From an uncultured archaeon (lineage in GTDB: Archaea > Micrarchaeota > Micrarchaeia > Micrarchaeales > CABMGC01): a stretch of DNA of 32,000 bases. Made by a program: the position numbers and the translations under genes. The stretch spans positions 300,001 through 332,000 of the forward strand of contig OY969902.1 in the NCBI GenBank assembly GCA_963704435.1, given 5' to 3'. Shown one piece after another: positions 12,543 through 31,012 of the stretch; the stretch's first letter is position 1; each line of letters starts with the position of its first letter. The notes under the pieces were generated by a model. It made no database searches. It had not been told where the DNA came from and worked only from the letters and a program-made list of their open reading frames with translations.

Positions 12543-14240
12543 ATGTACATCCTTGGTTTGTGGGACGGTCATGATGCAGGCGCAGCCCTGCTTGAGGACG
12601 ACAGGATAGTCTTCGCTGCCAACGAGGAACGGTACACCAAGCGCAAGCTTGAGATAAAGTTCCCCTACAATTCGATAACTGCCGCGCTGTCCTATGCGGG
12701 CATAAAGCCTAGCGATGTAGAGACCGTCGCGTTCCCGACGACCGAGTTCGCGAAGACCCTCTCGCGAGTCCTTCCGTACCAGCAGGAGGCATACTACCAG
12801 TTCAGGAGAAGGAAGATGCTCAAGCCCAGGGGAGAGTCGGCAAGGCGCTTCCTGAAGTATGCGCAGACCGGAGTGGGCACGCTTCCCCTCTGCGGCACGG
12901 TGAGCAAGGCAGCGATATCCCGGCACCTCAGGAGCATTGGCTTCGGCAAATTCAAGCTTCACGGCGTTGACCATCACGAGTCGCACGCCGCCACTGCCGC
13001 CTTCACATCAGGATTCGACAAGGCGCTGGTCATCACCATCGACGGATTGGGGGATGGAGTGAGCGCATCCGTGAGCGTGCTCGACGGCGGAAAGCTCGAG
13101 AGGCAGCACTCGGTCAGCGCGAGGAACTCCATAGGCGTGTTCTTCGAGCAGGTCACCAACATCGTAGGCATGCGCGAGCTCGAGGACGAGGGCAAGGTCA
13201 TGGCGATGGCCTGTTACTCCTACCCCTTCCCGTTCGAGGAGAACAGGCTCAAGGACTTCTTCAGCGTGGAGGGGCTCGACATACGCGCGAAGTACGGGCC
13301 GAACGGCCAGTATGACGCGCTGAGCAGGATCGCGTGGTCGATGCCGAGGGAGCAGTTCTCCTACATGGCGCAGCAGCTCCTGGAGCGCGTGCTCGTCGAT
13401 TTCTTCACGAACGCCATCGAGCGGTTCGGCATCGGGAACGTGGCAATGGCTGGCGGAACGCTCTCGAACGTCAAGGCTAATATGCAGGTGAGGAACATCG
13501 AAGGGCTTAAGAGGTGGTTCATATTCCCGCACATGGGAGACGGAGGCATAGCTCTCGGAGCCGCGATGCACGTGAACCACGAGCTCAATGGGACCGGCGC
13601 ATACGAATTCAAGGACTCATACTTGGGGGACGGGTTCAGCGAGGGCTATGTCGAGGGGCTGCTCAGGAAGGAGAAGGGAATAAGGTTCGAGAGGGACGCA
13701 GACAGCAGCGCCCACGCCGCGGAGCTCATAAGCGGGGACGATTACGTCTTCTGGTTCCAGGGAAGGATGGAGTACGGGCCGCGAGCTCTAGGCAACAGGA
13801 GCATACTGGCGAAGGCGGGATCGGAGAGCGTGAAGGACAAGCTAAACACGTACGTCAAGCAGAGGGAATGGTACCAGCCGTTCGCGCCATCGATGCTGGA
13901 GGAAGAGTCTACCCGGTTGCTGGATGACATAAAGGGCAGCGACCGCTTCATGACCATGGCCTACAAGGTGAAAAAGGGCGCCGAGGGACTGATGAGGTCG
14001 GTAATCCACGTGGACGGCACCGCGAGGCCGCAGATGGTCGGCACCGAGAATCCGAATTATCGCGAGCTCCTGAGGAGGCTTGCGCAGCTCGATGGATACG
14101 GCATGGCGCTGAACACCAGCTTCAACATACATGGCATGCCGATAGTCAGGAGCCCGGAGGATGCGCTCGATACGATGAGGAAGACGAAGACGAGGCACAT
14201 GTTCCTCAACGGATTCTACGTTGAGAACACGGAGGCGTGA
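12543..14240 (+). CDS. carbamoyltransferase, NodU/CmcH/TobZ family
   Basis: 565 aa. It has 'ILGLWDGHDAGAALLEDDRIVFAANEERYTKRK', 'HHESHAATAAF', and a C-terminal 'HVDGTARPQ...NTSFN' YrdC/Kae1-like carbamoyltransferase signature. Confidence 0.85.
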   Translation: MYILGLWDGHDAGAALLEDDRIVFAANEERYTKRKLEIKFPYNSITAALSYAGIKPSDVETVAFPTTEFAKTLSRVLPYQQEAYYQFRRRKMLKPRGESARRFLKYAQTGVGTLPLCGTVSKAAISRHLRSIGFGKFKLHGVDHHESHAATAAFTSGFDKALVITIDGLGDGVSASVSVLDGGKLERQHSVSARNSIGVFFEQVTNIVGMRELEDEGKVMAMACYSYPFPFEENRLKDFFSVEGLDIRAKYGPNGQYDALSRIAWSMPREQFSYMAQQLLERVLVDFFTNAIERFGIGNVAMAGGTLSNVKANMQVRNIEGLKRWFIFPHMGDGGIALGAAMHVNHELNGTGAYEFKDSYLGDGFSEGYVEGLLRKEKGIRFERDADSSAHAAELISGDDYVFWFQGRMEYGPRALGNRSILAKAGSESVKDKLNTYVKQREWYQPFAPSMLEEESTRLLDDIKGSDRFMTMAYKVKKGAEGLMRSVIHVDGTARPQMVGTENPNYRELLRRLAQLDGYGMALNTSFNIHGMPIVRSPEDALDTMRKTKTRHMFLNGFYVENTEA

Positions 14241-14242
14241 CC

Positions 14243-15973
14243 ATGCTCCTCGGATACGCCACTACAGCGGCAGTGCTCGCGACCTTCGCGTCGCTTCTCC
14301 TCTTCGTCTTCATGGGCAGGAAGGAGCTACGCGAAGTCCTGTCGAAGTGCATAAACAGGTACTCCCTGATCGCGCTGCTCGCGATCCTAGCGTTCTTCAT
14401 AGCGTTCGCCGCTACGAGGGTGAGCGCCGTCTCCCAGCTGTATTTCGACGAGAACATCTACCAGGGGGTGGCGATCAACATCCTCAGCCACGGCAGCGCG
14501 CTGTGGTGCCAGTACGGAACTGGCTACCTGCGGAACTGCTTCTCGACCCAGGTGTACCACGACCCTGTGGGCTGGTCCGTCTTCATAGCGATGGCCTTCG
14601 CTCTATTCGGGATAGGCTTCAATACCGCTTACGGGCTCGAACTGGCGGTCGGCGCGATGTCCATAGTCGCTGTCTTCCTTCTCTCGAGCGTCCTGCTCGA
14701 CAGGAAGCGCCTTGCGGTGATAGCCACCGTCGCGTTCGTGACAATGCCGCAGCTCTACATCTGGTCTAGGACGCAGGCGGACATCGACCTGCCGTTCATG
14801 ATGCTGGCTACGCTGGCGTTCTTCTTCTTCTTCGTCTTCGAGAGGAAGAGGAGCTTCAACACCCTCGCGCTCTTCGCTTTCAGCCTGGTGCTCGTCGCGT
14901 ATGTCAGGATAGAGGCGATGCTCCTGATCGCGGTGTTCGCTGCGCTTTTTGTCGCTTTCGGCGATGGAGGGATAAGGAAATCGGTGCGCAGGAACCTGGC
15001 GGCCATCAGGCATGCGCTGGGCGATAACGCAAAGGCAATACTCCTGCTGATCGTCTTCATCGTGCTCCTCCTGCCTGAAATCTACTACGTGGCGTTGGAG
15101 TTCGCCAGCCCCAGCTACGGCCAGCCATCAGGGCAGGGCGTGCTGTCCCTGGCGAACTTCATGAGCAACGCGCCCACGAATGCGCTTTTCCTGACCGGGC
15201 TCCTATCGGGAATGAACAGCGCCGCGCTCTACCCGATCGTCTTCTCCGGAACGGTGATGTTCCTGGCCATCTTGGGGACGCTCCTCTTCGCCCTCGACTC
15301 CAGGCGCAGGGACAGGTTCTGCGTGCTCCTCGCGCTTTGGCTGTGGTTCGCGGTCTACTTCCTCTTCTACGCATCATTCTACGCGGGCAGCGCGACGTTC
15401 GGAGTCGACTCGAGGTTCATGCTGCAGACGCTGCCTCCTCTCTCACTGCTCGCGGCGCTGTGCGTTTTCGAGCTTGGCGAAGCAGCTTCGCGGCTTACGG
15501 AAGGCCGCAGAAAAGGCAGAAAACTCCGGTCCAGTATCGCGTTCTACGCGGTGGCGGGTGCGGTAGCTGCGGCGGCGTTCGCGTACCCGTTCGTTATGAT
15601 TGCGCCCGTAATAACCATGAGCCCGTCGAGCATGCCCCAGCAGTCGGTGATACTCAAGGCGGTCAACTTCTTCTACGCCAACTACAACTCCGTGCCGGAC
15701 AACTGCCTCGTGTTCTCGTTCACGCCGGACTTGTGGTACGAGGTGAACATAAGCTCCGCGCAGATAAACCTGATGGGAAGCGCCAGCATCAGCCAGGATC
15801 TGGGACAGAACAAGTGCGTCGTGCTCGACTACGGCTACTGGTGCGTGGTTCCGCCGTTCCGCGACACGACCTGCAAGATGCTGGCCCAGGAATACAAGAC
15901 GCGCGTGATCGCCTCGGCGTCCGCCGGTAACGGCTACAACACGACCTTCTACCAGATCCTGAACTACAGCTAG
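14243..15973 (+). CDS. GT-C fold glycosyltransferase (ArnT/PMT_2-like polytopic membrane protein)
   Basis: About 576 aa with more than 10 predicted TM segments. The first extracytoplasmic loop motif 'YFDENIYQ' is of the D-E type seen in GT39/GT83-like enzymes. The start is either the ATG at 14243 or the GTG at 14237, which overlaps the upstream TGA. Confidence 0.65.
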   Translation: MLLGYATTAAVLATFASLLLFVFMGRKELREVLSKCINRYSLIALLAILAFFIAFAATRVSAVSQLYFDENIYQGVAINILSHGSALWCQYGTGYLRNCFSTQVYHDPVGWSVFIAMAFALFGIGFNTAYGLELAVGAMSIVAVFLLSSVLLDRKRLAVIATVAFVTMPQLYIWSRTQADIDLPFMMLATLAFFFFFVFERKRSFNTLALFAFSLVLVAYVRIEAMLLIAVFAALFVAFGDGGIRKSVRRNLAAIRHALGDNAKAILLLIVFIVLLLPEIYYVALEFASPSYGQPSGQGVLSLANFMSNAPTNALFLTGLLSGMNSAALYPIVFSGTVMFLAILGTLLFALDSRRRDRFCVLLALWLWFAVYFLFYASFYAGSATFGVDSRFMLQTLPPLSLLAALCVFELGEAASRLTEGRRKGRKLRSSIAFYAVAGAVAAAAFAYPFVMIAPVITMSPSSMPQQSVILKAVNFFYANYNSVPDNCLVFSFTPDLWYEVNISSAQINLMGSASISQDLGQNKCVVLDYGYWCVVPPFRDTTCKMLAQEYKTRVIASASAGNGYNTTFYQILNYS

Positions 15974-16776
15974 GCGGGGTGCTTCTTCCTCTTCTTCAGG
16001 AACACGTACGCCAGTAGCGCCACCAGAAGCGCGACCACCGCGGCGGACGCCCACAGCAGTACCGACCCGAGGTCCAGGGGCGGGTTCAGCTTTTGCTGGG
16101 ATATAGAGAACGAGACGTACCTTGCGTATGAGAGATTGCCTTCCTCATACTGTGCGGCAGCGGCGACCCCGTAGGACACCTGCGCCGAGGACGGCAGTTT
16201 TAGGTAAAAGGTGGCGTTCTTCGTAATGTAGGGACCCAGACCTATTCTGAGCTGCCTGGCAGACTCGTATAAGAACGTCGGGGGCAGTATCAGCGAGACG
16301 TTGGCAGTTACATTGGCTGCGCTGAAAAGGGAAACGCTGACCTTGGCAGTTCCGTTGGGCCCAGGAGACACGCTCGGAGTGAGATATATCTGGGACACGG
16401 TGGTGTTGTGGAAGCTCACGAGGCACGGGAAGACCGCGGTGAAGGAGTCCATTCCCTGCATGTAGGTCGTCACAAAATAATCTGCGTACGTGCCCCTAGC
16501 GGTTATGTTCGACAGGGAGATGCTTACGTTGGCGCCAGCGCCAGGCTGCAGCAGGCCGTTCACCGCGTAGCCCTCGCTTGCGCTCCTGGCTCCGGAGATG
16601 AATGGCTGGATTCCTATGTTGTATGCGGTGTCGTTGCTTAAATTGGAGTTTGAGAGATTGAAGACGATTGAATTGCCGTCCACAGGATTTCTGCACAATC
16701 CGCTGAGCGTGAGCGTCCCGGCCGCGGCCAGGCTGGCCAGCAGCAGGAATGCCATTGCAAATGCGAACCTGCTCAC
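15970..16776 (-). CDS. secreted, sequon-rich surface protein with C-terminal TM plus basic tail (candidate archaeosortase substrate)
   Basis: Start taken at the GTG at 16776, a GTGA overlap with the speB stop. This gives the signal peptide '(M)SRFAFAMAFLLLASLAAAG'. There are more than 10 N-x-S/T sequons. The C-terminus reads 'PPLDLGSVLLWASAAVVALLVALLAYVFLKKRKKHPA'. Confidence 0.65.
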   Translation of the reverse strand: MSRFAFAMAFLLLASLAAAGTLTLSGLCRNPVDGNSIVFNLSNSNLSNDTAYNIGIQPFISGARSASEGYAVNGLLQPGAGANVSISLSNITARGTYADYFVTTYMQGMDSFTAVFPCLVSFHNTTVSQIYLTPSVSPGPNGTAKVSVSLFSAANVTANVSLILPPTFLYESARQLRIGLGPYITKNATFYLKLPSSAQVSYGVAAAAQYEEGNLSYARYVSFSISQQKLNPPLDLGSVLLWASAAVVALLVALLAYVFLKKRKKHPA

Positions 16777-17672
16777 GAGCTCTCCTTCTTTGACAGGAAA
16801 TATCCCAGCGTCAGGTAGATCAGCTTGGCCGTGAGGTAGTCCGGCGCATGCAGGTAGGGTATCGGGCACAGCTCAGTCACGTCCAGCCCGACCAGCGTCT
16901 TGCGCTGGCCCAGCTCCTCTATTATCTGCATCAGCTCGTAGAACCTGAGCCCGTCGGGCTCCGGGGTGCCCACGCTGGGCATCTCGCTCGGATCGAGCAC
17001 GTCGAGGTCTATGGACAGGTAGATCTTTTCGGGGGTCGATTCGACTATCGTGTCTATCGCCTCTCGCATCCCTATCCTCCGCAGGTCCCTCTGGCAGAGC
17101 ACCTTCTGGCGTTCGGCCTTCGCTGCGAAACCGCTGTCCATGCTCCTGACCCCGACCTGAAAGGTCTCGGGGTACAGCTCCCTCGCCCTGGCGATCACCG
17201 TGCCGTGCATGTACCTTGAACTCAGCAACTCCGCCCTTGAGTCGGAATGCGCGTCGAAGCACAGCACACCGAAGTCCGCGTTCCTTTCCTTGAAGGCGCG
17301 AAGGGCGCCCAGGGTTATGGTGTGCTCACCGCCGAGCAGGAGCGGCACCTTCCGGTCCTGCAGCATTATGCCCACCTCCCTCTTTATGGCCTCTATCATG
17401 CTATCGGGGGAGCTCACGTCGGGCGACATCGCCGGCAGCGTGTATATGCCTATGCCGCTTATGTCCGCGCCAAGCTCGTAGCTGTAGAGCTCCATGTTCC
17501 TGCTCGCGTTTATTATCGCGTCGGGACCCTCGCGCGCCCCCGTCTTGTAAGTGGTGGTCGCGTCGTACGGCACCGGAAGAACGGCCACCCTGGCCTTTTC
17601 GTAGTCCTGCTCGTCGATGCCGAACAGGTTGTGCTTCGGCGCCTGGTTCAGCGGAAGTTTCGGGTCTGCCAT
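16773..17672 (-). CDS. speB: agmatinase (ureohydrolase/arginase family)
   Basis: 299 aa with the Mn-binding motifs 'GGEHTIT', 'FDAHSD' and 'SIDLDVLDPS'. Confidence 0.85.
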   Translation of the reverse strand: MADPKLPLNQAPKHNLFGIDEQDYEKARVAVLPVPYDATTTYKTGAREGPDAIINASRNMELYSYELGADISGIGIYTLPAMSPDVSSPDSMIEAIKREVGIMLQDRKVPLLLGGEHTITLGALRAFKERNADFGVLCFDAHSDSRAELLSSRYMHGTVIARARELYPETFQVGVRSMDSGFAAKAERQKVLCQRDLRRIGMREAIDTIVESTPEKIYLSIDLDVLDPSEMPSVGTPEPDGLRFYELMQIIEELGQRKTLVGLDVTELCPIPYLHAPDYLTAKLIYLTLGYFLSKKESS

Positions 17673-17712
17673 TCAAACACGCTCGTAAGTATATGATTGC
17701 CGGAATAGGTAT

Positions 17713-18708
17713 TTAACCGCTCGTTCCTCTCAGAGGAAGGCGCGAGGACCGGCCATTCCCGCCAAGCATCGCCTTTATCCGCTTGAGGTCCTTTTCCAGC
17801 GACGCGGCGTTCGTCGTCGACCTAAGCGCCGCCGCGGGGTGGTACGTTATGAAATAGGTGATTCCGCCCTTCGCAAACGCCCTTCCTCGGCTGCCTGCGA
17901 TCCTGTCGATGCCGAGGACCGATGCGCTCGCCGTCCTGCCTAGGAGTATTATCGTCTTAGGTTTCACGATTCCTATCTGCGCGTCGAGGAACTTCCTGCA
18001 CGCCGCCAGCTCACCGCGCGTCGGCGCACGATTTCCAGGGGGCCTGAATGGAACCATGTTGGTTATGTAGAGGTTCTCCCTTCTCAAGCCCGCCTTCCTC
18101 AGGAGCGACTCAAGCTTCCGGCCGCCTCTCCCGACGAACGGCCTGCCCAGCGCATCCTCAGTAGCGCCTGGCGCCTCACCCAGCAGCATGATCTCTGCGT
18201 CGAGCGGACCCTCTCCTTTCACGAGCTTCTTACTAAGCCGCCATCCCTTGGATTTCGGCGGCAGCCTTGCGTATTCGGAATCCAGCTTTTTCATCCGCTC
18301 GTGTCTGCCGATGTAGTCGAACACGCGCGGAGCTATGCGCTCCAGGTCCCTATATTTTATCCGCTCTGCGAAGCCCTCATAATCCAGCCACTCGTATCCT
18401 ATGTGCTCTCTAGACAACCTGACCCTTTTCGTCCTGGCCTTTCCAAGGAAGAACTTGTCGCGCTTGAGCACTTTCTCCTTCCCCCTTGTGAAGAAGTATC
18501 TCGTCTCCGCAAGGAAGTAGGGTATGAAGGACACCTCCAGGCCTGTCTCCTCCTTCAGTTCGCGGTGCGCCGCATCCGCGGCGTGCTCCCCCTTCTTTAT
18601 GTGACCCTTGGGCAGGTCGCAGTCCTTCACCCTCTTCAGCAGGAGGACCAGCGTCCTTCCGCGCTCGATCCGGTATACGAAGACGCCTGCGGAGTACTCG
18701 AAAATCAT
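17713..18708 (-). CDS. fusion protein: N-terminal NUDIX hydrolase plus C-terminal family-4-like uracil-DNA glycosylase
   Basis: Start taken at the ATG at 18708, an ATGA overlap with the upstream gene. The Nudix box is 'GHIKKGEHAADAAHRELKEETGL'. UDG motif A is 'LLGEAPGATEDALGRPFVGRGG' and motif B is 'TYHPAAALR'. Confidence 0.75.
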   Translation of the reverse strand: MIFEYSAGVFVYRIERGRTLVLLLKRVKDCDLPKGHIKKGEHAADAAHRELKEETGLEVSFIPYFLAETRYFFTRGKEKVLKRDKFFLGKARTKRVRLSREHIGYEWLDYEGFAERIKYRDLERIAPRVFDYIGRHERMKKLDSEYARLPPKSKGWRLSKKLVKGEGPLDAEIMLLGEAPGATEDALGRPFVGRGGRKLESLLRKAGLRRENLYITNMVPFRPPGNRAPTRGELAACRKFLDAQIGIVKPKTIILLGRTASASVLGIDRIAGSRGRAFAKGGITYFITYHPAAALRSTTNAASLEKDLKRIKAMLGGNGRSSRLPLRGTSG

Positions 18709-20246
18709 CGCAATCCCACTATGCCCTCCGAAATGCATAGCGCGGTAAGCATGTTCCTCCTCACTGTGGCGTTTGCGCTCCCTCCGTCAGGACCGTTCAG
18801 CAGCAGGTAGTACGCGGCGCTGTAGCCCGCCGAGCACGTGCTGTTGCGGAGCACGCCAGGGGGTATGACTATGTAGGTCCCGGCAACGGTCGACGAGGAG
18901 TTCTGCAGCGCGAGCGGGAGGTCGGCACCGTATACCACGAACGTCGTCCTGTTGGAGATCACGTCAAGCACCGTCTCGCTTATTCCGGTGGCGCTCACCA
19001 TCTCGAGCTTTCCCGCCACGGTGTCGTTGCTCTCGATGTTCTTGAGGACGGCGGGGTTCGGCCCGCTCATCTGCATCACCACCGGAGACGACACGCTTAT
19101 CGTCTTGTTGAAGAGGTCGAAAAGGACATAGTCCCCCGTCGGGCTTGCTATGGACAGGCTTGTCAGGTTGCTCCCGCCTATCATGCCCGCCACCGAGGAT
19201 TCGACCTCCTTGTTGCTGTAGTTGAACGCCACCCTGTTCGCGAGAATGATTGGGGAGGTGGGAGCAGATACTGAAACGTTCGCGGTCGTGAGAAGGTACA
19301 GCGCGGGGAATGCAAGCGCAAGAAGTATCGCGCACAGGTATATGCCTCCGTTCCCCGATTCTTTCTTTCCCTTCCGCTTGGCAGTCGGGCCCTCCTTAGC
19401 AAGGGACAGGCCGTACTTCCCTGCGACCAGCACCATCGCGGCGATCGCGATGTAGAACAGTATCACACCGGCCGATGCGTGCACGAGGGCGATTATGCTG
19501 CTGGGCCCGTAGGTCAGCCAGGCGAACGATACGCCGAGCATCCTCACGATGTTCAGCACGAACAGCAGCGCAACTCCGCTCGATACCCAGACGACCTTCT
19601 TCCGGTTCTTCCCTGAGTATAAGTATGCGATGGGGACCAGGAACAGCGCCATCGCCACGAAGATCCCCAGGCTTACGCAAGCCTGTCCGATGCCCAGGCT
19701 GTATCCGTTAGCGCTTATCGCTAGCGGAGCGATGTATGACGCGCTCGGCGCGAACAGCTTGATGAAATGGTATACCAGGAGCGTGTTGAAGGATGTGAAC
19801 GCTCCGTAGGAGTTGAGTATCAGGAATAGCACTGCGGGCGACGCGAATACAGAATAGAGCATCAGGCCCCTGAAATTGCTTATGCTGTCGAGGCCGAACA
19901 GGAGGGTAGCGAGCGCCGCGAAGGCCAGCGGCAGCAGGAGCAGGTCGACGCTGAAGCTCGCGAACAGGAAAGACAGGTAGAACCTCGCGAACAGCGAGAC
20001 CAGCACGAACGCCGCGAACATCGCCGAGCCTGCGGCCAGGTCCCTGGCCCCGACGTGCGGCTCGGGCCTCGTCTTCGCGGAGAACAGCACGAAAAGCGGG
20101 ATCATGAGCAGCGGTACGATTATGTAGCTGGAAGGGTCTGTGTCGCTTATGGAGAAGGGAGTAGTAAGGAACGATGATACGAGCAGCACAAGGACTGCCA
20201 CGAAGAAGACGGCTATGCCAACGTTCATGCCATACTTGATTCTCAT
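18705..20246 (-). CDS. archaeosortase/exosortase-family membrane protein with extra TM and about 190-aa extracytoplasmic C-terminal domain
   Basis: 513 aa with a polytopic N-terminal 280 aa. Family-typical residues appear in the expected order: 'GIGQACVSLG' (Cys190), 'LNIVRMLG' (Arg235) and 'LVHASAGVILF' (His256). A basic loop, one more TM, and a sequon-rich domain follow. Confidence 0.7.
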   Translation of the reverse strand: MRIKYGMNVGIAVFFVAVLVLLVSSFLTTPFSISDTDPSSYIIVPLLMIPLFVLFSAKTRPEPHVGARDLAAGSAMFAAFVLVSLFARFYLSFLFASFSVDLLLLPLAFAALATLLFGLDSISNFRGLMLYSVFASPAVLFLILNSYGAFTSFNTLLVYHFIKLFAPSASYIAPLAISANGYSLGIGQACVSLGIFVAMALFLVPIAYLYSGKNRKKVVWVSSGVALLFVLNIVRMLGVSFAWLTYGPSSIIALVHASAGVILFYIAIAAMVLVAGKYGLSLAKEGPTAKRKGKKESGNGGIYLCAILLALAFPALYLLTTANVSVSAPTSPIILANRVAFNYSNKEVESSVAGMIGGSNLTSLSIASPTGDYVLFDLFNKTISVSSPVVMQMSGPNPAVLKNIESNDTVAGKLEMVSATGISETVLDVISNRTTFVVYGADLPLALQNSSSTVAGTYIVIPPGVLRNSTCSAGYSAAYYLLLNGPDGGSANATVRRNMLTALCISEGIVGLR

Positions 20247-20336
20247 GTAAACGCCTTTTGTCCTCCGCCGATATAGACTTCATCACTAGTCAGTAGTTAC
20301 TCTGTTCGTCACTGGACAGGAATATTGGATTAATTG

Positions 20337-20348
20337 TATTATATAAAT
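20337..20348 (+). promoter_or_regulatory. TATA box for archease (short or absent leader)
   Basis: The motif 'tattatataaat' is centred about 25 nt upstream of the ATG at 20367. Confidence 0.45.
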
Positions 20349-20366
20349 GCCTACCCAATCCTAACC

Positions 20367-20807
20367 ATGCCGACCGCAAGATACAGGTACCTGCCGCACA
20401 CCGCGGACATAAAATTTGTAGCGTATGGCAAGGACCTCAGGGAACTGATTGAGAACTCCGCGCTCGCGCTGCTGAACGTCATGCTCGACACTCGGAAGAT
20501 AAAAAGAGGGAAGGGAAAAGCGAAGATGATCGTGATAAATGAGAAGGCAGACATCTGGGAGAACATGATCTGGTATGCGCTCCAGGACATGCTCACCAGG
20601 ATCGATGAGAAGTCGCTGTGCGCATTCGAGTTCAAGGTTAAGTCGCTGTCCATGGAAAAGGGCGGGATATGGATGGCTGGTGAGCTGCGATACAGGGGCG
20701 CGGACGCATCGTGCTTCCTTACGGAGGTGAAGGCGGTGACCCCCTACGACATGAAAGTGAGGAAGACCAAAGGCGGCTACGAGATGGCTGTCGTGCTCGA
20801 CGTGTGA
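20367..20807 (+). CDS. archease
   Basis: Start at the first ATG; the track uses an upstream TTG. 'YRYLPHTADIKFVAYGKDL' is the archease N-terminal signature, and the size of about 146 aa fits. Confidence 0.8.
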   Translation: MPTARYRYLPHTADIKFVAYGKDLRELIENSALALLNVMLDTRKIKRGKGKAKMIVINEKADIWENMIWYALQDMLTRIDEKSLCAFEFKVKSLSMEKGGIWMAGELRYRGADASCFLTEVKAVTPYDMKVRKTKGGYEMAVVLDV

Positions 20808-20815
20808 AGAAGGCC

Positions 20816-22612
20816 ATGGGACGGCCCGCCAGTCTCACCATAAAGATTAAGATGCTACTCGTGCAAAGACACCATAGGGAGAAGATGAGGCGCTTCGGGT
20901 TTGAGATATACATACAGAAAGCGAAGCCCGGCGACACAAGTTGGAAGAATTTTATCAACACCGTATTCGATTACGACAGGGAATTCACGATAGAAGCGGA
21001 ATTTCTTGCGAGCGACGTCAACCTATATCTCTACTCAAACAGGGACCTGTCGAATCTGGCAACGAAGATACTTCCATTCATCCTCAAACCCATCAAGATT
21101 GCGCAGAAGCAGGAGGCATCCCCGCGCAAAATTAGACCGAGGCCGTACTTTTTCCTGCTGCCGGGCAACAAGAACCTGCTGGAGATAAAGGAGCATCAGA
21201 AAATCAAGAATGGCCTGGATCTTAAGAGCGTCGTCTGGCATTTCAGGTCGTTTTTCAGAGTGAAGGTAAACACCATGACCTTCATGTTCGAGGATGGAGA
21301 AGACGGACTGAGGACGGCCAAGAAGTATGCGCTGGGAATACCCTTCCGCCTGCTTGAGCAGATAGACTGGTCCAAGGCCGTCAAGTACAAAAAGAAGGAA
21401 ATGCCCGCATACCTCAACATCGAAAATGAATCCGATCTGTTCGTGCAAGGAAAGTCGGAAAGCATTTTGGAGGTCGATGGGTTCCCATACCTGAACGCGC
21501 AGAGCTACCTGTCGCTCAGGGGCTTCGATTTCGAAAAGCATACCCTGATACTGGGGCAGACTGGGGTCGGAAAATCAAAGCTCATAACCCTTCTTGTGAA
21601 AAGCATGGAGAGGCTTCAGTCAAAGGACAAGTATGCGGTAGTCGTGATAGACCCCCACGCCTCATTGTTCTCTGACTTCGGTGGAGTGAAGGGCGCCGTG
21701 AGCCTGGACTTCGTAAAGTCCTACTGCGACCTGTTCGTCAAGGGCGCGGACCCTAAGATGGCTACCGAGCTTACGCTGCTCCTGTTCAAGACCCTGCTGA
21801 AGGACCAGTTCAATCCCAGGCTCGAGCGCGTGCTGAAGTACTCCTCGTTCTCCCTGATCTCGGCGGGCGCGATGTCGCTCAACAACATGAGGAAGTTCCT
21901 TTCGGAAATCGAGTATCGAAAGGACATACTGGACAAGCTGCCTGACGAGGACGCTACGGCGCACTTCTTCGACACGGACTTCATAGAAGCGCAAACGCAG
22001 TTCTATGACACCGCGATAATGCCCATACTCTCCCTTATCGACGAGCTCAACCTGCTTCCTGTGTTCAAGGAGGGCAGATCCCTGAAGGACGTGATAAGCG
22101 ACAACTTCCTCACGGTGTTCTCCCTTTCGAGGATATCCCTCGGGGACAGGGCCTCAAGGCTCATCGCCGGGCTGCTGATACAGCAGCTGTTCCTGATGGC
22201 GCAGGGCGGGATGCTCCGCAAGAAGGTAATCCTGGTGATAGACGAGGTGCCTATGGTGGAGAACGACGCCATGATAGCCATACTCTCCGAATCCAGGAAG
22301 TTCGGCATGTCGCTGTTCCTCTCCATGCAGTTCCTGGATCAGATAAGCGCGCCGCTGCAGAAGGCGATCCTTTCGAACGTCTACAACTATTTCGTATTCA
22401 AGACCGACGAGAAAGACGCAGAGACGCTCGGAAAGAACCTGTACCTCGACATACCCTCCGAGGTGATGGAGGCGGCGAAGGAGAGGGGCGAGAGCAAGGA
22501 TGACATAAAGAAGAGGCTGTTCACGACGCTCAACGCGAGGGAGTGCATCGTGAGGGTGTACTCGAACGGCAAATACTACCACTGCTTCAGGGCAAAGACT
22601 CTCGAATCGTGA
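20816..22612 (+). CDS. HerA/FtsK-superfamily P-loop NTPase (DUF87-like) with uncharacterised 270-aa N-terminal region
   Basis: The ATG at 20816 lies 8 nt after the archease stop codon. It has Walker A 'ILGQTGVGKSKL', 'VVVIDPHASLF', Walker B 'VILVIDEVPMV' and 'SESRKFGMSLFLSMQF'. Confidence 0.7.
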   Translation: MGRPASLTIKIKMLLVQRHHREKMRRFGFEIYIQKAKPGDTSWKNFINTVFDYDREFTIEAEFLASDVNLYLYSNRDLSNLATKILPFILKPIKIAQKQEASPRKIRPRPYFFLLPGNKNLLEIKEHQKIKNGLDLKSVVWHFRSFFRVKVNTMTFMFEDGEDGLRTAKKYALGIPFRLLEQIDWSKAVKYKKKEMPAYLNIENESDLFVQGKSESILEVDGFPYLNAQSYLSLRGFDFEKHTLILGQTGVGKSKLITLLVKSMERLQSKDKYAVVVIDPHASLFSDFGGVKGAVSLDFVKSYCDLFVKGADPKMATELTLLLFKTLLKDQFNPRLERVLKYSSFSLISAGAMSLNNMRKFLSEIEYRKDILDKLPDEDATAHFFDTDFIEAQTQFYDTAIMPILSLIDELNLLPVFKEGRSLKDVISDNFLTVFSLSRISLGDRASRLIAGLLIQQLFLMAQGGMLRKKVILVIDEVPMVENDAMIAILSESRKFGMSLFLSMQFLDQISAPLQKAILSNVYNYFVFKTDEKDAETLGKNLYLDIPSEVMEAAKERGESKDDIKKRLFTTLNARECIVRVYSNGKYYHCFRAKTLES

Positions 22613-22617
22613 TCCGC

Positions 22618-23355
22618 ATGGACGAGAACAAGGCGAAGCAGATCACCGATTACGTGTTCAAGGACGTCTTCGGGGTCGGAAACCCCTTCTCCCTCGAGGA
22701 GATAAGGAAGAGGTTCGCGTTCGACATCGAGCTCCCGAAGAAAGCGAGGGGCGCGTTCACCGAAGAGGACGTCTGGACCATCTCTGAGACAAAGGACAGG
22801 GTTATAGGGCGGAAGGCCCTCATGGCGCGGATGAAGAAGGACGAATGGATGCTGGAGAAAAAGCCCATAGGTTCGGTGGAGGAACTGCTGGGCCGCTGGA
22901 GCGAGATAAACTACATGCAGGGGGAGCGCTATGAGGACTCCACGGAAGTAGCGGAATCGGATAACGTCTACCACAGCACGTCCGTGTATAGGAGCACGGA
23001 GACGCTCCACTCGCAGAACATCGTATTCTCAAATACAAATTTCGGATGCAGCTACCTCGTCGCCAGTTCGGACAACTCGAAGTGCATCCTGGGCGTGAGG
23101 ATGCGCAAGAGCGTATTCTGCTCCTCGGGATTCGAGATCTCGGGATCGGACAAGGTATCTAAGAGCATGTATATACGCGGATGCACGGACCTGTATGAAT
23201 GCATGTTCTGCTCGCAGCTCAGGTCGAAGAGGTACTGCATAGCGAACATGCAGTTCGAGAAGGGCGAGTACCTCAGGATAAAGGACATGCTGGTTAAGTG
23301 GACCCTGGAGAACTTCGACGCAAAGCTGAAATCGAAGCTGGGCTTGAGCCGATAG
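22618..23355 (+). CDS. hypothetical protein with C-terminal Cys-ladder repeat region
   Basis: The ATG lies 5 nt after the ATPase stop codon. The C-terminal half has roughly 11-12-aa periodic segments ending in 'CTDLYECMFCSQLRSKRYCIANMQFEKGEY'. I cannot name a family. Confidence 0.55.
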   Translation: MDENKAKQITDYVFKDVFGVGNPFSLEEIRKRFAFDIELPKKARGAFTEEDVWTISETKDRVIGRKALMARMKKDEWMLEKKPIGSVEELLGRWSEINYMQGERYEDSTEVAESDNVYHSTSVYRSTETLHSQNIVFSNTNFGCSYLVASSDNSKCILGVRMRKSVFCSSGFEISGSDKVSKSMYIRGCTDLYECMFCSQLRSKRYCIANMQFEKGEYLRIKDMLVKWTLENFDAKLKSKLGLSR

Positions 23356-23480
23356 CGCTGATTTCCGCACAAAATTAAAAAGCCAGGGAAGGGCTGAGGC
23401 AGTTAAGCTTACCCTTTTCTTGGGTAGGCTCATAGGATGACCCTAAAGGTATTAATACGAGTAAATTATTAAGAGTTGGC

Positions 23481-23699
23481 ATGGAACTTTGGAAGAAAAG
23501 GCAGCACCACAACGTTGCCAGGGACACCACCCGGGTTATGAAGCTCGGCAACGCCCAGCTTCTCATCACGATACCGGCGGAGATCGCCAGGTGGAAGAAG
23601 ATCGGCAAGGGTACGCTGCTGAAGTGGTCCGATGCGGGGCAGGACCGCGTACTCGTGGAGGTAAAAGAAGAAACAGTCAGCGAGCTCGCTGGATATTAG
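23481..23699 (+). CDS. AbrB/SpoVT-type (swapped-hairpin) DNA-binding protein
   Basis: 72 aa. 'VMKLGNAQLLITIPAEIARWKKIGKGTLLKWSDAGQDRVLVEV' fits the AbrB/MazE looped-hinge pattern. A TATA-like 'tattaata' lies about 30 nt upstream. Confidence 0.6.
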   Translation: MELWKKRQHHNVARDTTRVMKLGNAQLLITIPAEIARWKKIGKGTLLKWSDAGQDRVLVEVKEETVSELAGY

Positions 23700-23827
23700 T
23701 TGCGGCATTTTCGACGACAAAATGAACTTTCAGACGACAAACCCCCGCCATTATAAATAATATATCGGATATTCACTGGCTACGGTTTGCAGTTTCAGCT
23801 CCGCATTGCGTGCGAGGGTGACGCGCA

Positions 23828-24016
23828 TCACGTTACGTGCCTCATCGGTTGGTCCTCGGGTTCGCCGAGGAGACGGCGGAGCTCCTTAACCCTCGCGAGT
23901 ATGACTGCACTCGGTTCCTTTATGGTCCGCTCCGTGAACTCCCGAAAGTATTCCCTCGACAGCTCCGCAATCCTTAGCCTGATAGCCTCGACGTTTATTT
24001 GCTTTGTTTCTTCCAT
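23828..24016 (-). CDS. hypothetical small helical protein (last gene of the minus-strand block)
   Basis: 62-aa ORF with charged, helical composition, tightly following the upstream micro-ORFs. Confidence 0.4.
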   Translation of the reverse strand: MEETKQINVEAIRLRIAELSREYFREFTERTIKEPSAVILARVKELRRLLGEPEDQPMRHVT

Positions 24017-24249
24017 GTTTTCACCTAATCGTCACCGAGGAGCAGCAAAAGCAGTTCCAGCTCCTCCTCACTCAGCCCTTCCATGCCAGTCTCCTCTTGC
24101 GGGACCGGCGGCAGTTCCTTCTTCTTCCAGGGCCAACCCACTATAACACCCCTGCCATTCGCTTATAAGATGCTTTACAGGTCGCGCACAGGCTCAAAGT
24201 GGCAGTTACACCCATATCCACCTCAGTTGCGAGACCCCTGAACCCCATT

Positions 24250-24684
24250 TTAAGCACCTATTCGCTTATTCCGCTCCAAAGCCATAGTTTCGAGCCACCT
24301 TTTGCGCGATTCTTCCTTATCTTTGAGGTATTTCACCCTCTCCGGCTCGGGCATGGCCGCGAGCTTCGCGTCCTCGCGCAGCTCACGATCCTGCAAGCCC
24401 TTGTTTGGCAGTAATGCCTGCTGCTCAGGTGTGAGGGCCCTGTAAAATGCCTCCCTGAGTTCGCGGGGGACGTGGCAGGTGCGCTGTGGGTCACCTGGAA
24501 GTCCGCGCCGCTGCACTATGAGCCTGCCATCCACGTCCTTATCATAGGTGGCAAAGCAGAGCGGACATTCGTTTGCCGCGCACCTGTGGAACGACCTGCA
24601 CCCGTACTCTTTGGTAAGTTGCGGCGTGCCTGGCGGCGCACTGTCAGGTCCGCATATAAGCTGGTTCTCATTCGTCTTTTTCAT
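24250..24684 (-). CDS. hypothetical Cys-rich (zinc-finger-like) protein
   Basis: 144 aa with an N-terminal 'C..(19)..C....H.C...ECPLC' cluster and a charged helical C-terminus. It overlaps the upstream ORF by 17 nt. Confidence 0.5.
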   Translation of the reverse strand: MKKTNENQLICGPDSAPPGTPQLTKEYGCRSFHRCAANECPLCFATYDKDVDGRLIVQRRGLPGDPQRTCHVPRELREAFYRALTPEQQALLPNKGLQDRELREDAKLAAMPEPERVKYLKDKEESRKRWLETMALERNKRIGA

Positions 24685-24856
24685 GGTTATCCCTCTTGAA
24701 CAGGTAGTAGTTCAGCAGGCCCCACGCCAGCGCCGCCTCCGAACTCGCAAAGCTGAGGAGCTGCATGATAGTCAGGTTTATATCCTCCATGCTGGTCCTC
24801 GGTCTCCTTTCGTAGTTCTTCGGCACGTCTTTGGCAGGATAGGTTGGTTCGCACAT
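24668..24856 (-). CDS. hypothetical small protein with one hydrophobic helix
   Basis: 62-aa ORF in the same tightly packed block. Confidence 0.4.
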   Translation of the reverse strand: MCEPTYPAKDVPKNYERRPRTSMEDINLTIMQLLSFASSEAALAWGLLNYYLFKRDNHEKDE

Positions 24857-24862
24857 GGTAAT

Positions 24863-25009
24863 TCACCCCTTCTTATCGCGCATTATCTTTATCGCATCCT
24901 CGAAGCTGTGCGGTCCATGATGGTTGCGCTCATAATGGCAGCGCAGCAGCAGGGTCCGACCTTCGCCTCTTGGCAAAGTCACGGAAACATTACAGGTTTT
25001 CTTATCCAT
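24863..25009 (-). CDS. possible 48-aa micro-ORF
   Basis: Manual translation gives MDKKTCNVSVTLPRGEGRTLLLRCHYERNHHGPHSFEDAIKIMRDKKG*. Its ATG lies 2 nt after the stop of the 663-aa gene. It ends 6 nt before the next ATG. Confidence 0.3.
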   Translation of the reverse strand: MDKKTCNVSVTLPRGEGRTLLLRCHYERNHHGPHSFEDAIKIMRDKKG

Positions 25010-25011
25010 AG

Positions 25012-27003
25012 TCATACCTCAGCGTCCTTATTCTCCTGCCTGAAGATCGCGGTAGCGCGTATATCGTCAGGTTTGCCCGGAACCTCCTCGACTTCCCCTC
25101 CGAATACCATGAAGTTGCACAGGATCGGGCGCCAGGACTCGGGAGCGAACAGGAATTTAGGGTAACGACCTACCTTTATGCCCTCCGGGTGGGCCAGGAG
25201 CGCAGCCTTAACCTCTTTTAGAGGTGTTATAGGCATTATAGTGGTAGGTATGGCAGGTTTGGTGGCTTCTACACTCTCTTTATTATTTTCGTTCTCGCTA
25301 CATGGGGGGTGGCTCGGAGGTGCCTGACCTACCAAACCCACCAATGTTACCCTTTTATCTTCCATATTTTTGGTCCACTTATACTGGTTCCGGTTAGGGT
25401 GGTCCTTAGCCTCGACCACTTCCATTCTTATTCCTGAAAGAACCCTGATGTTTTTGTATTTATCGAGGAACCTGCTGAATTTCAGCCATGCTTTGCCTTC
25501 GTCTTTGCTCCAGTCCAGCCAACCGAACAGGCCGGAGAAGTCGCTCTCGGCGTCCATGAACTCGCTCTTTATATCTTTTTTGTTTATCCAGTTCTCTCCC
25601 CACTTCGCATAGGCTAATTCAAAGAGCACTTTCATCTCCCGCGTCTCGCGGTCACCGCCCATAGCGTCCGAAGTGTCGTTTGGCTTGCACGGGCTCCCAT
25701 AACCGGCGGCCTCCATTATCCCGCCCGCTACCCGCGCCCATTCGTGGTAGCTGGTGAACGGGACGTTGCCAGGCCTCATGCCAGTCTCGCACCAGTTCCT
25801 TACCAGCGCATACAGGGCGCTCAGTATGTCACCCCTGTTCTCCGCGATCCATTCGTGCAGGTTCGGGGTCTCGAACTTCCGGTCATTCGGGTCCTCCTCG
25901 CCGAATTGCAGATTGACGAACACGCACCGCGCCGCCAGGTCAGGGGTGTACGTTATCCCTGTGTTTGCCGACATGGAGAGCTCCAAAGTGTTCGGGTACG
26001 TCAGCATGGTGTTGCTCCCGAGCTGCCTGTCGGTTATCACCTCGGCAGTCGCGGCCCTTTCGAGTTCTGCGCTGTTGATATAACCCTTGTTGTTGCTCGA
26101 ATGTATGCGGCCCCTCCCGCTTTTGAGTGTCGAGAGCACTTTCTTCCTGAACTCGTCGTCATGCGTCTCCCTCTCGCTCGATATTGCGGGGTCCTCTATG
26201 GCCGCGCCCTCGAACACTATGCCAGGTATTCCAGCGCAGTAGTCTTTGCCCGACCTCTCCCTATTCGCCTTAAAGAAGAATATGGGCGTCCTGGAAGTCT
26301 CGCTCTTATAGAGGCCTCTGCAAAACTGCGTAAGCAGCCCAGCAATGGCATTGGCGCGGTCCTGCTCGGCCACGAAACAGAACTCGCGGTATATCCTGCC
26401 TATCAGTGCCTTCGCGTCCTCCAGCTTCATGTCGGTCCTGATCTCCGGCGCGTCCAGAGGCAGCCAGGAGCGAAGCCCTGGGTCATAGCCCTTTTGCGGG
26501 AACGCGAGTTTGCCGTCTTTAAGCAGCGGCATAGGCACGCTGTATATCCTCTCTATCGCGGGGAGGTTGGCCCTGAACTGGGCCTCGCTCGCCAGCGTAA
26601 CCTCCGCGTTGTTCGGGGATAGGCTTTTAGTCACGAAATAGTTGCTCAGCCTCTCATGCTTCTCTATGCCGACGGTAAAATGCTCCTCGATCAAAGTTAT
26701 GAGCTCTGTGCTCTTTACCGGCTGGAATACCAGCACCTTCTTATCCTTCCGCTCACCTACCGCCTGCATTGCGAGCCTGACGACCTGGCGCTCATTTGGT
26801 TTGTAAAAAAGCACCTTCTTATCGCTGAAATACATGCCTAATTCAGTTGCAAACTCTCCGTTAGGCCTGCCTTCTCCTGGGAGCAGCAGTTCCTTTTTGG
26901 CCGCCTTCGCCGCCATGTATTCCGTTGCGGCAGTGACAGGATCGCGCCCGGCAGCCATTGCGTCGGCGACGCGCTTTTCAAGGAGCTTATCTTCGCTCAT
27001 CAT
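25012..27003 (-). CDS. large putative replication-associated protein with SF3 (D5/P4-type) helicase-like layout and atypical P-loop
   Basis: 663 aa. The central region reads 'FFFKANRERSGKDYCAG ... ELERAATAEVITDRQLGSNTMLTYPNTLELSMSANTGITYTPDLAARCVFVNLQF ... ILSALYALVRNW'. This follows the order of Walker A-like, B, motif C (..N) and Arg-finger regions of primase-helicases, but with non-canonical residues. Confidence 0.35.
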   Translation of the reverse strand: MMSEDKLLEKRVADAMAAGRDPVTAATEYMAAKAAKKELLLPGEGRPNGEFATELGMYFSDKKVLFYKPNERQVVRLAMQAVGERKDKKVLVFQPVKSTELITLIEEHFTVGIEKHERLSNYFVTKSLSPNNAEVTLASEAQFRANLPAIERIYSVPMPLLKDGKLAFPQKGYDPGLRSWLPLDAPEIRTDMKLEDAKALIGRIYREFCFVAEQDRANAIAGLLTQFCRGLYKSETSRTPIFFFKANRERSGKDYCAGIPGIVFEGAAIEDPAISSERETHDDEFRKKVLSTLKSGRGRIHSSNNKGYINSAELERAATAEVITDRQLGSNTMLTYPNTLELSMSANTGITYTPDLAARCVFVNLQFGEEDPNDRKFETPNLHEWIAENRGDILSALYALVRNWCETGMRPGNVPFTSYHEWARVAGGIMEAAGYGSPCKPNDTSDAMGGDRETREMKVLFELAYAKWGENWINKKDIKSEFMDAESDFSGLFGWLDWSKDEGKAWLKFSRFLDKYKNIRVLSGIRMEVVEAKDHPNRNQYKWTKNMEDKRVTLVGLVGQAPPSHPPCSENENNKESVEATKPAIPTTIMPITPLKEVKAALLAHPEGIKVGRYPKFLFAPESWRPILCNFMVFGGEVEEVPGKPDDIRATAIFRQENKDAEV

Positions 27004-27188
27004 GCCACCCTCGAAGTCTCGGAGATTCGATCAATGCTGGCCCAACCGATAAGCTCCTCTTTGCCGTTGAAATAGCGCAGCACGATATAGTTCGGCTCGA
27101 TTTTAAGCAGCGTGCCGAACCGCTTATATCCGTCCTTCTGCACCACAAGGACGTTTCTGCCTAACAATTCGTTTTCTCCCATTGCCAC
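27000..27188 (-). CDS. small beta-rich protein, possibly Sm-like fold
   Basis: 62 aa. 'GRNVLVVQKDGYKRFGTLLKIEPNYIVLRY...IGWASIDRI' resembles the Sm1/Sm2 spacing. It has an ATGA overlap with the downstream gene. Confidence 0.35.
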   Translation of the reverse strand: MAMGENELLGRNVLVVQKDGYKRFGTLLKIEPNYIVLRYFNGKEELIGWASIDRISETSRVA

Positions 27189-27208
27189 TACCTCGTTTAA
27201 TCATTCGC

Positions 27209-27343
27209 CTATCTCCTGTACCTGAACCCCGTATATCTGAACTGGTGGCCCGTGACCGTCGAGGTGGCTATCCCGTTCTCGTCTATGGTGAACGGCACCC
27301 TCCGCCTTATCACGGGATCGAAAGCAGTGATATATCTCGCCAT
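27209..27343 (-). CDS. possible 44-aa micro-ORF
   Basis: Manual translation gives MARYITAFDPVIRRRVPFTIDENGIATSTVTGHQFRYTGFRYRR*. Its ATG shares one nucleotide with the upstream TGA. Confidence 0.25.
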   Translation of the reverse strand: MARYITAFDPVIRRRVPFTIDENGIATSTVTGHQFRYTGFRYRR

Positions 27344-27504
27344 CAACTCACCACAAAGCGAACCTCCAACCGCATGGAGCCGGGTAGCAACTTACTGAAC
27401 TTCTTGCACTTGCACCCCTTCACGAAGCAGGCACCCCTGCCAACGCGCCCAAACCCGAAGGTGTGGACGTGCTCCTTCGCATCATGTCCGCATCCGCATT
27501 TCAT
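27343..27504 (-). CDS. possible 53-aa zinc-binding micro-protein
   Basis: Manual translation gives MKCGCGHDAKEHVHTFGFGRVGRGACFVKGCKCKKFSKLLPGSMRLEVRFVVS*. It has a 'CGCGH...EH...C...GCKC' pattern and an ATGA overlap with the upstream gene. Confidence 0.35.
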   Translation of the reverse strand: MKCGCGHDAKEHVHTFGFGRVGRGACFVKGCKCKKFSKLLPGSMRLEVRFVVS

Positions 27505-27770
27505 GCCTTCACCCTCAAAGTATCCTGCTGCTCCAACGCCTTCAGGAGCTCCGCCTTCTTTACGAATAGCTGTCTCTGCAACTGCCTGAGCTCCCCAGCG
27601 AACCTCGGGTCGCTCAGGCCCAGCGCGTACAGCCTTATCTTCTCTATCAGCGCGTACAGCTCAGAGAAGGTCGTGCCTATTGCCTGCCCCTGCCTGTCGG
27701 TCTCGATAGTCCTCTCTATCTCCGCCTCCATGCCCCTGAGTCTTATCATTTCGGTCTTCAGCTCATCCAT
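27501..27770 (-). CDS. hypothetical coiled-coil protein
   Basis: 89 aa with a heptad-like charged composition. It overlaps the upstream gene by 8 nt. Confidence 0.45.
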   Translation of the reverse strand: MDELKTEMIRLRGMEAEIERTIETDRQGQAIGTTFSELYALIEKIRLYALGLSDPRFAGELRQLQRQLFVKKAELLKALEQQDTLRVKA

Positions 27771-28209
27771 GCTTATCCCTCATTAAAAGCGCATGCTTAT
27801 CCCTCATTAAAAGCGCGAATGATGCAATGAGAACAGCGAGATAGGCCAGATAGCCATACATGAACGGCACGGATTGACTATCCTGCACAGGCAGCGATTC
27901 GTTGCTGACTATCTCGGCCCACCACTGCGAGTACGCAGCAGGGTCTGAGGCTTCGAGCGCGGCCAGTTGAGTCACGTTCTCCGAGGTCGTCGAGATCGAG
28001 TACCCGACCAGCGGGGCGGGTGCTTTGTAGGTTAGTGGCAGGTGCAGCGCTATCGTTCCAGTCAGCCCAAACTGCGCGTCTATCGCTCTGTTTATGGTCT
28101 CGTGGTAGTATGCCCCGGCATATACCGCGAAATAAAACCCCAGTACCGCCAGCAGAACGAGCGCTGCCATGCCCTCACATAGCTTCTTTTCAAAGGTGTC
28201 CATTTCCAT
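27763..28209 (-). CDS. hypothetical membrane protein (N- and C-terminal TM helices)
   Basis: 148 aa with TM segments 'GMAALVLLAVLGFYFAVYAGAYY' and 'YGYLAYLAVLIASFALL' flanking an extracytoplasmic loop. The C-terminus carries the duplicated octapeptide. Confidence 0.5.
   Translation of the reverse strand: MEMDTFEKKLCEGMAALVLLAVLGFYFAVYAGAYYHETINRAIDAQFGLTGTIALHLPLTYKAPAPLVGYSISTTSENVTQLAALEASDPAAYSQWWAEIVSNESLPVQDSQSVPFMYGYLAYLAVLIASFALLMRDKHALLMRDKHG
27768..27815. repeat. perfect 24-bp tandem duplication (2 copies)
   Basis: The sequence 'catgcttatccctcattaaaagcg' occurs at 27768-27791 and again at 27792-27815. It encodes the 'ALLMRDKH' x2 tail of the 148-aa protein. One copy contains the ATG of the next gene. 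Confidence 0.95.
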
Positions 28210-28229
28210 TACCTCAAATCAAATATTCC

Positions 28230-29158: not shown

Positions 29159-29162
29159 ATTC

Positions 29163-30960: not shown

Positions 30961-31012
30961 ATATTAAAATAATAAAACCTAAGTAATTATACGACTATAA
31001 GAGGTAATTTAC
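30961..31012. promoter_or_regulatory. AT-rich divergent promoter region
   Basis: A 52-nt stretch of about 80% AT separates the minus-strand block from the plus-strand wHTH gene. An SD-like 'gaggt' (31001-31005) lies 7 nt before the TTG at 31013. Confidence 0.45.

Follow-up and report, generated by a model that had tools for sequence, protein, structure and literature searches.

We analyzed a window of 32,000 nucleotides (bases 300001–332000) from the single-contig genome of a member of the Micrarchaeales, an order of the DPANN archaeal phylum Micrarchaeota (852,977 bp, 55.5% G+C, estimated completeness 92%; here G000). The window contains a series of four minus-strand genes encoding a 513-amino acid (aa) membrane protein of the exosortase/archaeosortase family (hereafter the enzyme), a Nudix-uracil-DNA glycosylase (Nudix-UDG) fusion, an agmatinase, and a 268-aa CARDB-like glycoprotein (hereafter the surface protein). 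The original prediction, made from the sequence, held that the enzyme and the surface protein could form a new archaeosortase/substrate pair, and that the four genes are linked by ATGA and GTGA overlaps. All four open reading frames (ORFs) are present (Table 1; coordinates are window positions unless marked as genome positions). As read from the sequence, the Nudix-UDG gene starts with the ATG at 18708, which overlaps the stop codon of the enzyme gene as ATGA, and it appears to be translationally coupled to the enzyme through this overlap. A gap of 40 nucleotides and no overlap separates the Nudix-UDG and agmatinase genes. The surface protein starts with the GTG at 16776, which overlaps the agmatinase stop codon as GTGA and opens a signal-peptide-like N-terminus. 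A longer ORF from 16869 was rejected as an artefact of ORF listing. Two relatives are referred to below by label, the enzyme-bearing genome G193 and the enzyme-free genome G011; G016 denotes a complete genome from a sister family, and f1, f2 and f7 are families of the Micrarchaeota.

Table 1. Genes and protein features of the enzyme locus (TM, transmembrane).
Feature	Position	Strand	Evidence
Exosortase/archaeosortase-family membrane enzyme, 513 aa	18705..20246 (stop codon included)	-	TIGR04178, PF09721
Catalytic signature region, residues 186–274, with Cys190, Arg235, His256	19425..19691	-	TIGR04178 match span
Extra TM helix, residues ~301–326, after basic cytoplasmic loop KRKGKKESG (predicted)	19269..19346	-	AlphaFold2 model helix 300–326
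Clade-specific extracytoplasmic domain, residues 327–513 (predicted)	18708..19268	-	Protein search and structure models
Nudix-UDG fusion (family 4 uracil-DNA glycosylase)	17713..18708	-	TIGR00758 (UDG family 4, 170.9 bits) and NUDIX match (Pfam, NCBIfam)
Agmatinase	16773..17672	-	TIGR01230 (192.2 bits, cut-off 174.3) and PF00491 match (Pfam, NCBIfam)
Surface glycoprotein, 268 aa: signal peptide, CARDB-like ectodomain, C-terminal TM anchor	15970..16776	-	Sequence; orthologue PF07705 matches
Surface-protein tail, residues 226–268: variable linker with PPLDLGS, TM helix, KKRKKHPA	15973..16101	-	50-orthologue alignment
Archease, divergently transcribed, conserved enzyme neighbor	20334..20807	+	PF01951 (86 bits)

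The enzyme exceeds the curated cut-offs of both signature models of its family, TIGR04178 (42.2 bits, cut-off 23) and PF09721 (46.4 bits, cut-off 25.7), as expected from the membership originally predicted, and it is the sole match to the family in the 853-kb genome. We found 30 homologues of about 500–540 aa, and all 29 orthologues that were aligned match both models. Public annotation already labels homologues of the enzyme as members of the exosortase/archaeosortase family. A conserved trio of Cys, Arg and His is the signature of exosortases. The strings proposed to carry it, QACVSLG, NIVRM and VHASAGV, are present in the translation, and all lie within the span matched by TIGR04178 (residues 186–274). 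Cys190, Arg235 and His256, together with Asn232, do not vary in either of two alignments, of 21 and 29 orthologues, with 27–74% identity. Given this invariance down to 27% identity, and the retention of the gene in single copy in about 90% of genomes of only 0.6–1.2 Mb, it is exceedingly improbable that the enzyme is a relic without catalytic activity or that its role in the membrane is only structural, as might be suspected from the fact that no substrate signal was found.

An AlphaFold2 model of the enzyme (pLDDT 84.6) consists of approximately nine helices, a disordered basic loop at residues 288–298, a further helix at residues 300–326, and an alpha/beta domain. The basic loop (KRKGKKESG), the extra TM helix and the sequon-rich external domain of roughly 190 aa that had been read from the sequence are therefore all recovered. 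The domain comprises 187 residues with a seven-stranded sheet, nine N-x-S/T sequons and two cysteines, Cys471 and Cys504. By the positive-inside rule the basic stretches GKNRKK and KRKGKK are predicted to be cytoplasmic, which would place Cys190, Arg235 and His256 towards the outer face of the membrane and the last domain outside the cell. In the model these three residues appear to sit near the outer ends of three helices. All nine sequons of the enzyme are at residue 323 or higher, in agreement with an outer location of the last domain.

The outer domain was searched alone against 1.84 billion representative proteins, which returned 34 hits. Nearly all of these are at residues ~320–510 of proteins of ~500 aa; the others are either short, probably fragmentary proteins or, in a few cases, unrelated long proteins matched weakly over several stretches. 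Foldseek searches with the model of the whole enzyme and with a separate model of the domain (pLDDT 86.3) gave no match at E ≤ 0.001. Weak hits to Eag/SciW chaperones, Bet v 1-like proteins, LpqN and MTC28 recur, but with TM-scores of at most ~0.35 we did not accept any of them as the fold of the domain. A profile search against Protein Data Bank (PDB) sequences returned one weak match to the uncharacterised entry 2re7 (E = 0.003). An outer domain, EpsI, is also fused to some bacterial exosortases such as XrtD, and the original prediction had compared the enzyme with such fusions. This likeness fails by sequence, as the EpsI family PF11984 matches none of the 29 orthologues at E ≤ 1. Because nearly all hits of the search are to fused proteins of ~500 aa, and there was no significant fold match, the outer domain is private to the clade and fits no class in the libraries searched. 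The hits further suggest that it is restricted to the clade of the enzyme and is always fused at the same position.

The checks against subfamily models that had been proposed for the enzyme gave no assignment: no Art or Xrt cut-off is reached. None of the Art models (ArtA to ArtE and the later NCBIfam Art models) matches the enzyme or any of its 29 orthologues at E ≤ 1, and Art models are absent among the 23 families matched by any orthologue. The orthologues match bacterial-type Xrt models, the best being XrtW (4.5e-16), XrtA (2.5e-14), XrtD (7.4e-12) and TIGR02602 (1.5e-10). However, the enzyme itself scores below the cut-off of every named Xrt subfamily (A to Y), with 24.6 bits for XrtX (cut-off 170), 20 for XrtR (150) and 14.6 for XrtD (400). 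These profile comparisons indicate that the enzyme is a real member of the exosortase/archaeosortase family, that it represents an unclassified long-form subfamily, and that it lies outside any named Art or Xrt subfamily.

The enzyme resembles archaeosortase A (ArtA) of Haloferax volcanii, whose substrates carry PGF-CTERM, in being a polytopic membrane protein of the same superfamily (TIGR04178/PF09721) and in its conserved Cys and Arg at the outer face. Both hosts are archaea that have an S-layer and surface proteins bearing N-glycans. In ArtA, Cys173, Arg214 and Arg253 are essential (PMC9263693). The third conserved residue of our enzyme, in contrast, is His256; ArtA lacks the extra TM helix and the 187-residue outer domain, and neither the PGF-CTERM signal nor any other catalogued signal was found in G000. 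The bacterial exosortases (XrtA, XrtW, XrtD, XrtX; 8TM_EpsH), which act on PEP-CTERM-type substrates, give the best subfamily matches and share the Cys/Arg/His signature. However, the enzyme is far below every one of their cut-offs, no PEP-CTERM-like tails were found, and its outer domain does not match the EpsI profile.

The long form of the enzyme is present in 167 of 401 sampled genomes of the phylum, including 76 of 82 in f1, 80 of 94 in f2 and, more weakly, all nine in f7. In f1 and f2 it is a single-copy gene encoding 500–545 aa. Within f2, one genus (g34) lacks the enzyme in all 12 sampled genomes: TIGR04178 has no match in any of the 12, and five of them, which are 91–95% complete, have no match to PF09721. 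Other families of the phylum have either no such gene or one to three short forms, whose open frames are 189–297 aa long. These small, 'mini' exosortase/archaeosortase proteins likewise pass TIGR04178 and belong to the same phylum, but they often occur as two or three copies per genome and differ from the f1/f2 form in size, copy number and the extra domain. The long-form subfamily thus extends over two Micrarchaeales families and a portion of a third, and it is the sole family member in these genomes. A homologue (P0030) on a contig (L188) assigned to 'Methanothrix sp.' was considered as a case of spread outside the phylum and was rejected. Genes on this contig are arranged as in Micrarchaeales (CBS, archease, enzyme, Nudix), and because of this shared order it is probably mis-binned Micrarchaeota sequence in a metagenome-assembled genome.

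In 20 related genomes from f1 and f2 the genomic context of the enzyme is well conserved. The archease gene adjoins it divergently in 17, and the Nudix-UDG gene lies directly downstream in 16. The enzyme and Nudix-UDG genes are adjacent and co-directional in all 16, which makes a surface enzyme the stable, if odd, partner of a DNA-repair/nucleotide-hydrolase gene. A CBS gene followed by genes for type IV pilin-like proteins with class III signal peptides is found within a few kb of the archease/enzyme pair in 13 of the 20, and the same cluster occurs in G000 at genome positions 333.4–345 kb, about 13 kb away. This proximity raises the possibility that the enzyme serves a non-sorting role, either in the maturation or attachment of type IV pilin-like proteins or in a glycan- or lipid-linked step, as has been suspected for some EpsH-type proteins. 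However, the pilin-like proteins have no C-terminal TM tails, the genes in between (archease, CBS) are housekeeping genes, and a gene order conserved between close relatives carries little weight. The small archaeosortases constitute a different branch from the enzyme. We therefore regard a non-sorting role as unlikely.

In relatives the CBS/pilin-like cluster follows the archease gene within ~1 kb. In G000 the two are parted by ~12.6 kb of DNA with a lower G+C content (0.52–0.55 compared with 0.59), which occupies window positions 20711–32000 and continues beyond (genome 320.8–333.4 kb). Besides a HerA/DUF87/TrwB-like ATPase (20711–22612), this stretch encodes a 270-aa protein rich in Cys and several membrane proteins that match no family. 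It probably represents an integrated element of a mobile or conjugative type.

The surface protein has an ectodomain with 11 sequons. The sequence confirms that it ends as originally described, with PPLDLGS (within ...NPPLDLGS) followed by a hydrophobic TM stretch and KKRKKHPA. A word-based search found seven homologues, and a genome search found the protein in 123 of the 401 genomes, all in f1 and f2. The CARDB family (PF07705) matches 22 of 50 orthologues (best E 3.6e-6), and the protein in the window has no match at E ≤ 0.01. On its other side, a NodU-type carbamoyltransferase gene (12543–14240) overlaps the start of a gene for a 578-aa PMT_2-like membrane glycosyltransferase (14237–15973), whose stop codon overlaps that of the convergent surface-protein gene at 15970–15973. 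The two could constitute a glycan-modification pair beside a heavily sequon-bearing protein.

It had been proposed that the end of the surface protein is a new tripartite signal (P-x-L-D-x-G-S, TM helix, basic tail), which the enzyme would recognize and cut. The core of the motif, D[LF]G[ST], is retained in four close relatives. However, it is lost beyond ~60% identity. Over the 50 orthologues, residues 226–239, which include PPLDLGS, have a mean column identity of 0.24, compared with 0.48 for the ectodomain, 0.41 for the TM helix and 0.36 for the basic tail. Immediately ahead of the TM helix the orthologues have unrelated sequences, and the conserved columns are in the ectodomain. The PPLDLGS linker is therefore the least conserved stretch of the protein, which is the reverse of the pattern of a sorting signal. 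The pattern [LIVM]D[LIVMF]G[ST] ahead of a TM helix has a single match in G000, in the surface protein itself, and none in G193 or G011, so that the expected occurrence of the motif on other proteins of the genome was not borne out.

The tail also does not correspond to any catalogued signal. No catalogued CTERM model matches the surface protein or 22 other tails from two enzyme-bearing genomes. This includes the NCBIfam models for PGF-CTERM, PEF-CTERM, PIP-CTERM and VPXXXP-CTERM, from which the tail had correctly been distinguished, and also that for PEP-CTERM. The whole surface protein matches only generic models of a TM helix plus basic residues, below their cut-offs (for example GG_III-CTERM, 10.6 bits, cut-off 22). 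For the 70-residue tail alone, GG_III-CTERM reaches 13.7 bits (cut-off 22) and LPXTG_anchor 16.3 bits, nominally over its cut-off of 15.9. The latter match spans positions 13–34 of the 34 in the model, and so covers the TM helix and basic residues but leaves out the LPXTG motif.

The distribution of the two genes was compared as well. Neither gene family extends beyond f1 and f2 (apart from the weaker f7 matches of the enzyme), and the two share a strand block in G000 and on the contigs that carry the two closest homologues. However, in the 20 more distant genomes from f1 and f2 the genes are never adjacent, and neither the surface protein nor the agmatinase is encoded within 10 kb of the enzyme. 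Synteny was therefore rejected as support for the pairing: the fixed neighbors of the enzyme are archease and Nudix-UDG. Among genomes of f1 and f2, 115 contain both genes, 41 contain only the enzyme, seven contain only the surface protein and 13 contain neither, a comparison that is confounded by relatedness. The seven include three of the 12 genomes of the enzyme-free genus g34, in which the surface protein is kept with the same kind of tail.

We also compared the whole proteomes of three genomes (G000, G193 and G011), with crude ORF calling and filtering by hydropathy. G000 has 18 proteins with a signal-peptide-like start, a single C-terminal TM helix and a basic tail, G193 has 13 and the enzyme-free G011 has 14, and some of these families are common to all three. 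The tail architecture is thus as frequent in the genome without the enzyme as in those with it, and the proposed tie between the two is not supported. Two of the three outcomes that the original prediction had itself named as counting against it were therefore observed, the absence of the motif from other proteins and the equal presence of the architecture without the enzyme. With the motif unique in its genome and poorly conserved, and with the genes separated in other genomes and each found without the other, we consider it very unlikely that the enzyme recognizes and cuts this tail, and the proposal is already largely refuted. The enzyme half of the predicted pair stands and the substrate half does not.

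Instead, the surface protein is probably an ordinary type I membrane-anchored protein, and its tail a plain anchor and not a sorting signal. Its signal peptide, glycosylated ectodomain, variable linker, single TM helix and short basic cytoplasmic tail are the layout of plain TM anchoring, as in SlaB of Sulfolobus (PMC6098224), and the same layout is equally common in the relative without a sortase-like gene. Its position in the strand block of the enzyme is a genus-level accident of gene order.

Despite searching the three proteomes for other substrates, we did not identify a convincing signal. In none of them does a C-terminal TM helix follow a PGF, PEF, PEP, PIP or VPXXXP motif, save for single PEP and PIP strings without a basic tail. 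No tail is common to unrelated proteins in the three proteomes except for one genus-restricted pair, two otherwise different surface proteins (genome G000:C1 68710–70456) with the nearly identical tail MLPL[IM]GTGVAIAVAVAAGVAYSRI followed by basic residues. As a general signal this tail (MLPL[IM]GTG, genome 68.7–70.5 kb) was rejected. It occurs in four of 81 genomes of the family including G000, and the matches beyond G000 are weak, two in its own genus and one in another genus. A looser pattern before the TM helix, [ILM]-G-[STD], is seen in five tails of G000. This pattern was defined post hoc, and we dropped it because it is absent from the tails of the enzyme-bearing G193. A presence profile across the three genomes (present in G000 and G193, not in G011) yields 71 genes, among them four tail-anchored surface proteins whose tails have no common motif. 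This profile was also rejected, because a single loss event cannot carry the argument. The S-layer protein of G000 ends without a TM helix.

Several repeated C-termini were encountered in the same comparison. A tail family containing PTNLEFKKS was considered as a sorting tag but proved to be a homologous two-helix C-terminal module. Five proteins of 129–507 aa in G000:C1 (62172–75033, 380540–380929) share this module of ~90 residues and differ in their N-terminal parts. It follows the pattern LCGIV...LFLLGG...SHFLPTNLEFKKS...TM...SC, which a motif search found in neither G193 nor G011, and judged from its sequence it looks like a VirB2/TrbC-type pilin module. In addition, seven 298-aa ORFs in G000:C1 (e.g. 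115–1011, 40650–41546, 210784–211680) are identical over their last 55 residues, the tails being the only part compared. They resemble the transposase of an insertion sequence, either active or recently multiplied in the 853-kb genome. A multi-copy family of ~290 aa in G000, G193 and G011 (e.g. G000:C1 252477–253367) ends in GIGGAP...WWPLNGN..DYSGNN...YTPP. It is apparently a LamG-type pilin-like family, expanded in genomes with and without the enzyme.

The combination of a conserved, active-looking enzyme with three proteomes lacking any CTERM signature could also be explained if the enzyme does not use a sequence motif. It might act on C-terminal TM anchors of surface glycoproteins in general, the 268-aa protein possibly among them, with the outer domain recognizing the glycan or the TM helix. 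The private outer domain could supply such recognition, and its best though weak fold likeness is to the Eag/SciW chaperones, which hold TM helices. In addition, the four tail-anchored surface proteins of G000 with homologues in G193 and not in G011 include the 268-aa protein. However, the fold matches are not significant (E ≥ 0.007, TM-score ≤ 0.35), the enzyme-free G011 is equally rich in tail-anchored proteins, and some tail-anchored families are common to all three genomes. Every characterized member of the family uses a short signature motif, according to established knowledge and a review. We consider processing without a motif to be doubtful, about as improbable as a non-sorting role.

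Considering these results together, the enzyme is probably a functional polytopic membrane cysteine transpeptidase/protease of the exosortase/archaeosortase family with a clade-private outer domain, and the neighboring surface protein is probably plain-anchored and not its substrate. By analogy with ArtA, the enzyme would probably cleave the membrane-proximal end of exported proteins and pass them to another acceptor. The basic cytoplasmic loop and one more TM helix would place the glycosylated 187-residue alpha/beta domain outside the cell, where it probably helps to hold the substrate or the acceptor.

Several points weigh against this reading. The transpeptidase role is drawn from homology alone, because no substrate or sorting signal was found. 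The surface-protein family is confined to the two families of the enzyme, f1 and f2, and it is more common in genomes with the enzyme (74%) than in those without it (35%). This difference is confounded by relatedness, yet it is not zero evidence of a link. Additionally, a weak or non-terminal signal could escape a comparison of three proteomes.

Archaeosortases are listed in reviews for the Euryarchaeota only, and our literature search found no link between the exosortase/archaeosortase family and the Micrarchaeota. The paper describing the genome of Mia14 ('Ca. Mancarchaeum acidiphilum') does not mention the family (PMC5498576). How S-layer and surface glycoproteins are attached to the membrane in Micrarchaeota has been stated to be unknown (bioRxiv 10.1101/2021.04.28.441871). 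What is new here is modest: an unclassified long form with a private outer domain, the only representative of its family in an order of which some members have been cultured.

The analysis removes a tempting but wrong pairing of enzyme and substrate, and it illustrates that a C-terminal TM helix and a basic tail alone are not a sorting signal. It is conceivable, although improbable, that the enzyme, as the only sortase-like protein of the Micrarchaeales, to which the cultured Mia14 belongs, works without a short signature motif, and that its private glycosylated outer domain picks membrane-anchored surface glycoproteins or the S-layer anchor for cleavage and re-attachment. If true, this would be a mode of substrate choice that has not been described for any exosortase or archaeosortase. 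One order of Micrarchaeota keeps, in genomes without catalogued sorting tags, a single active-looking sortase-like enzyme with a domain that is seen nowhere else.

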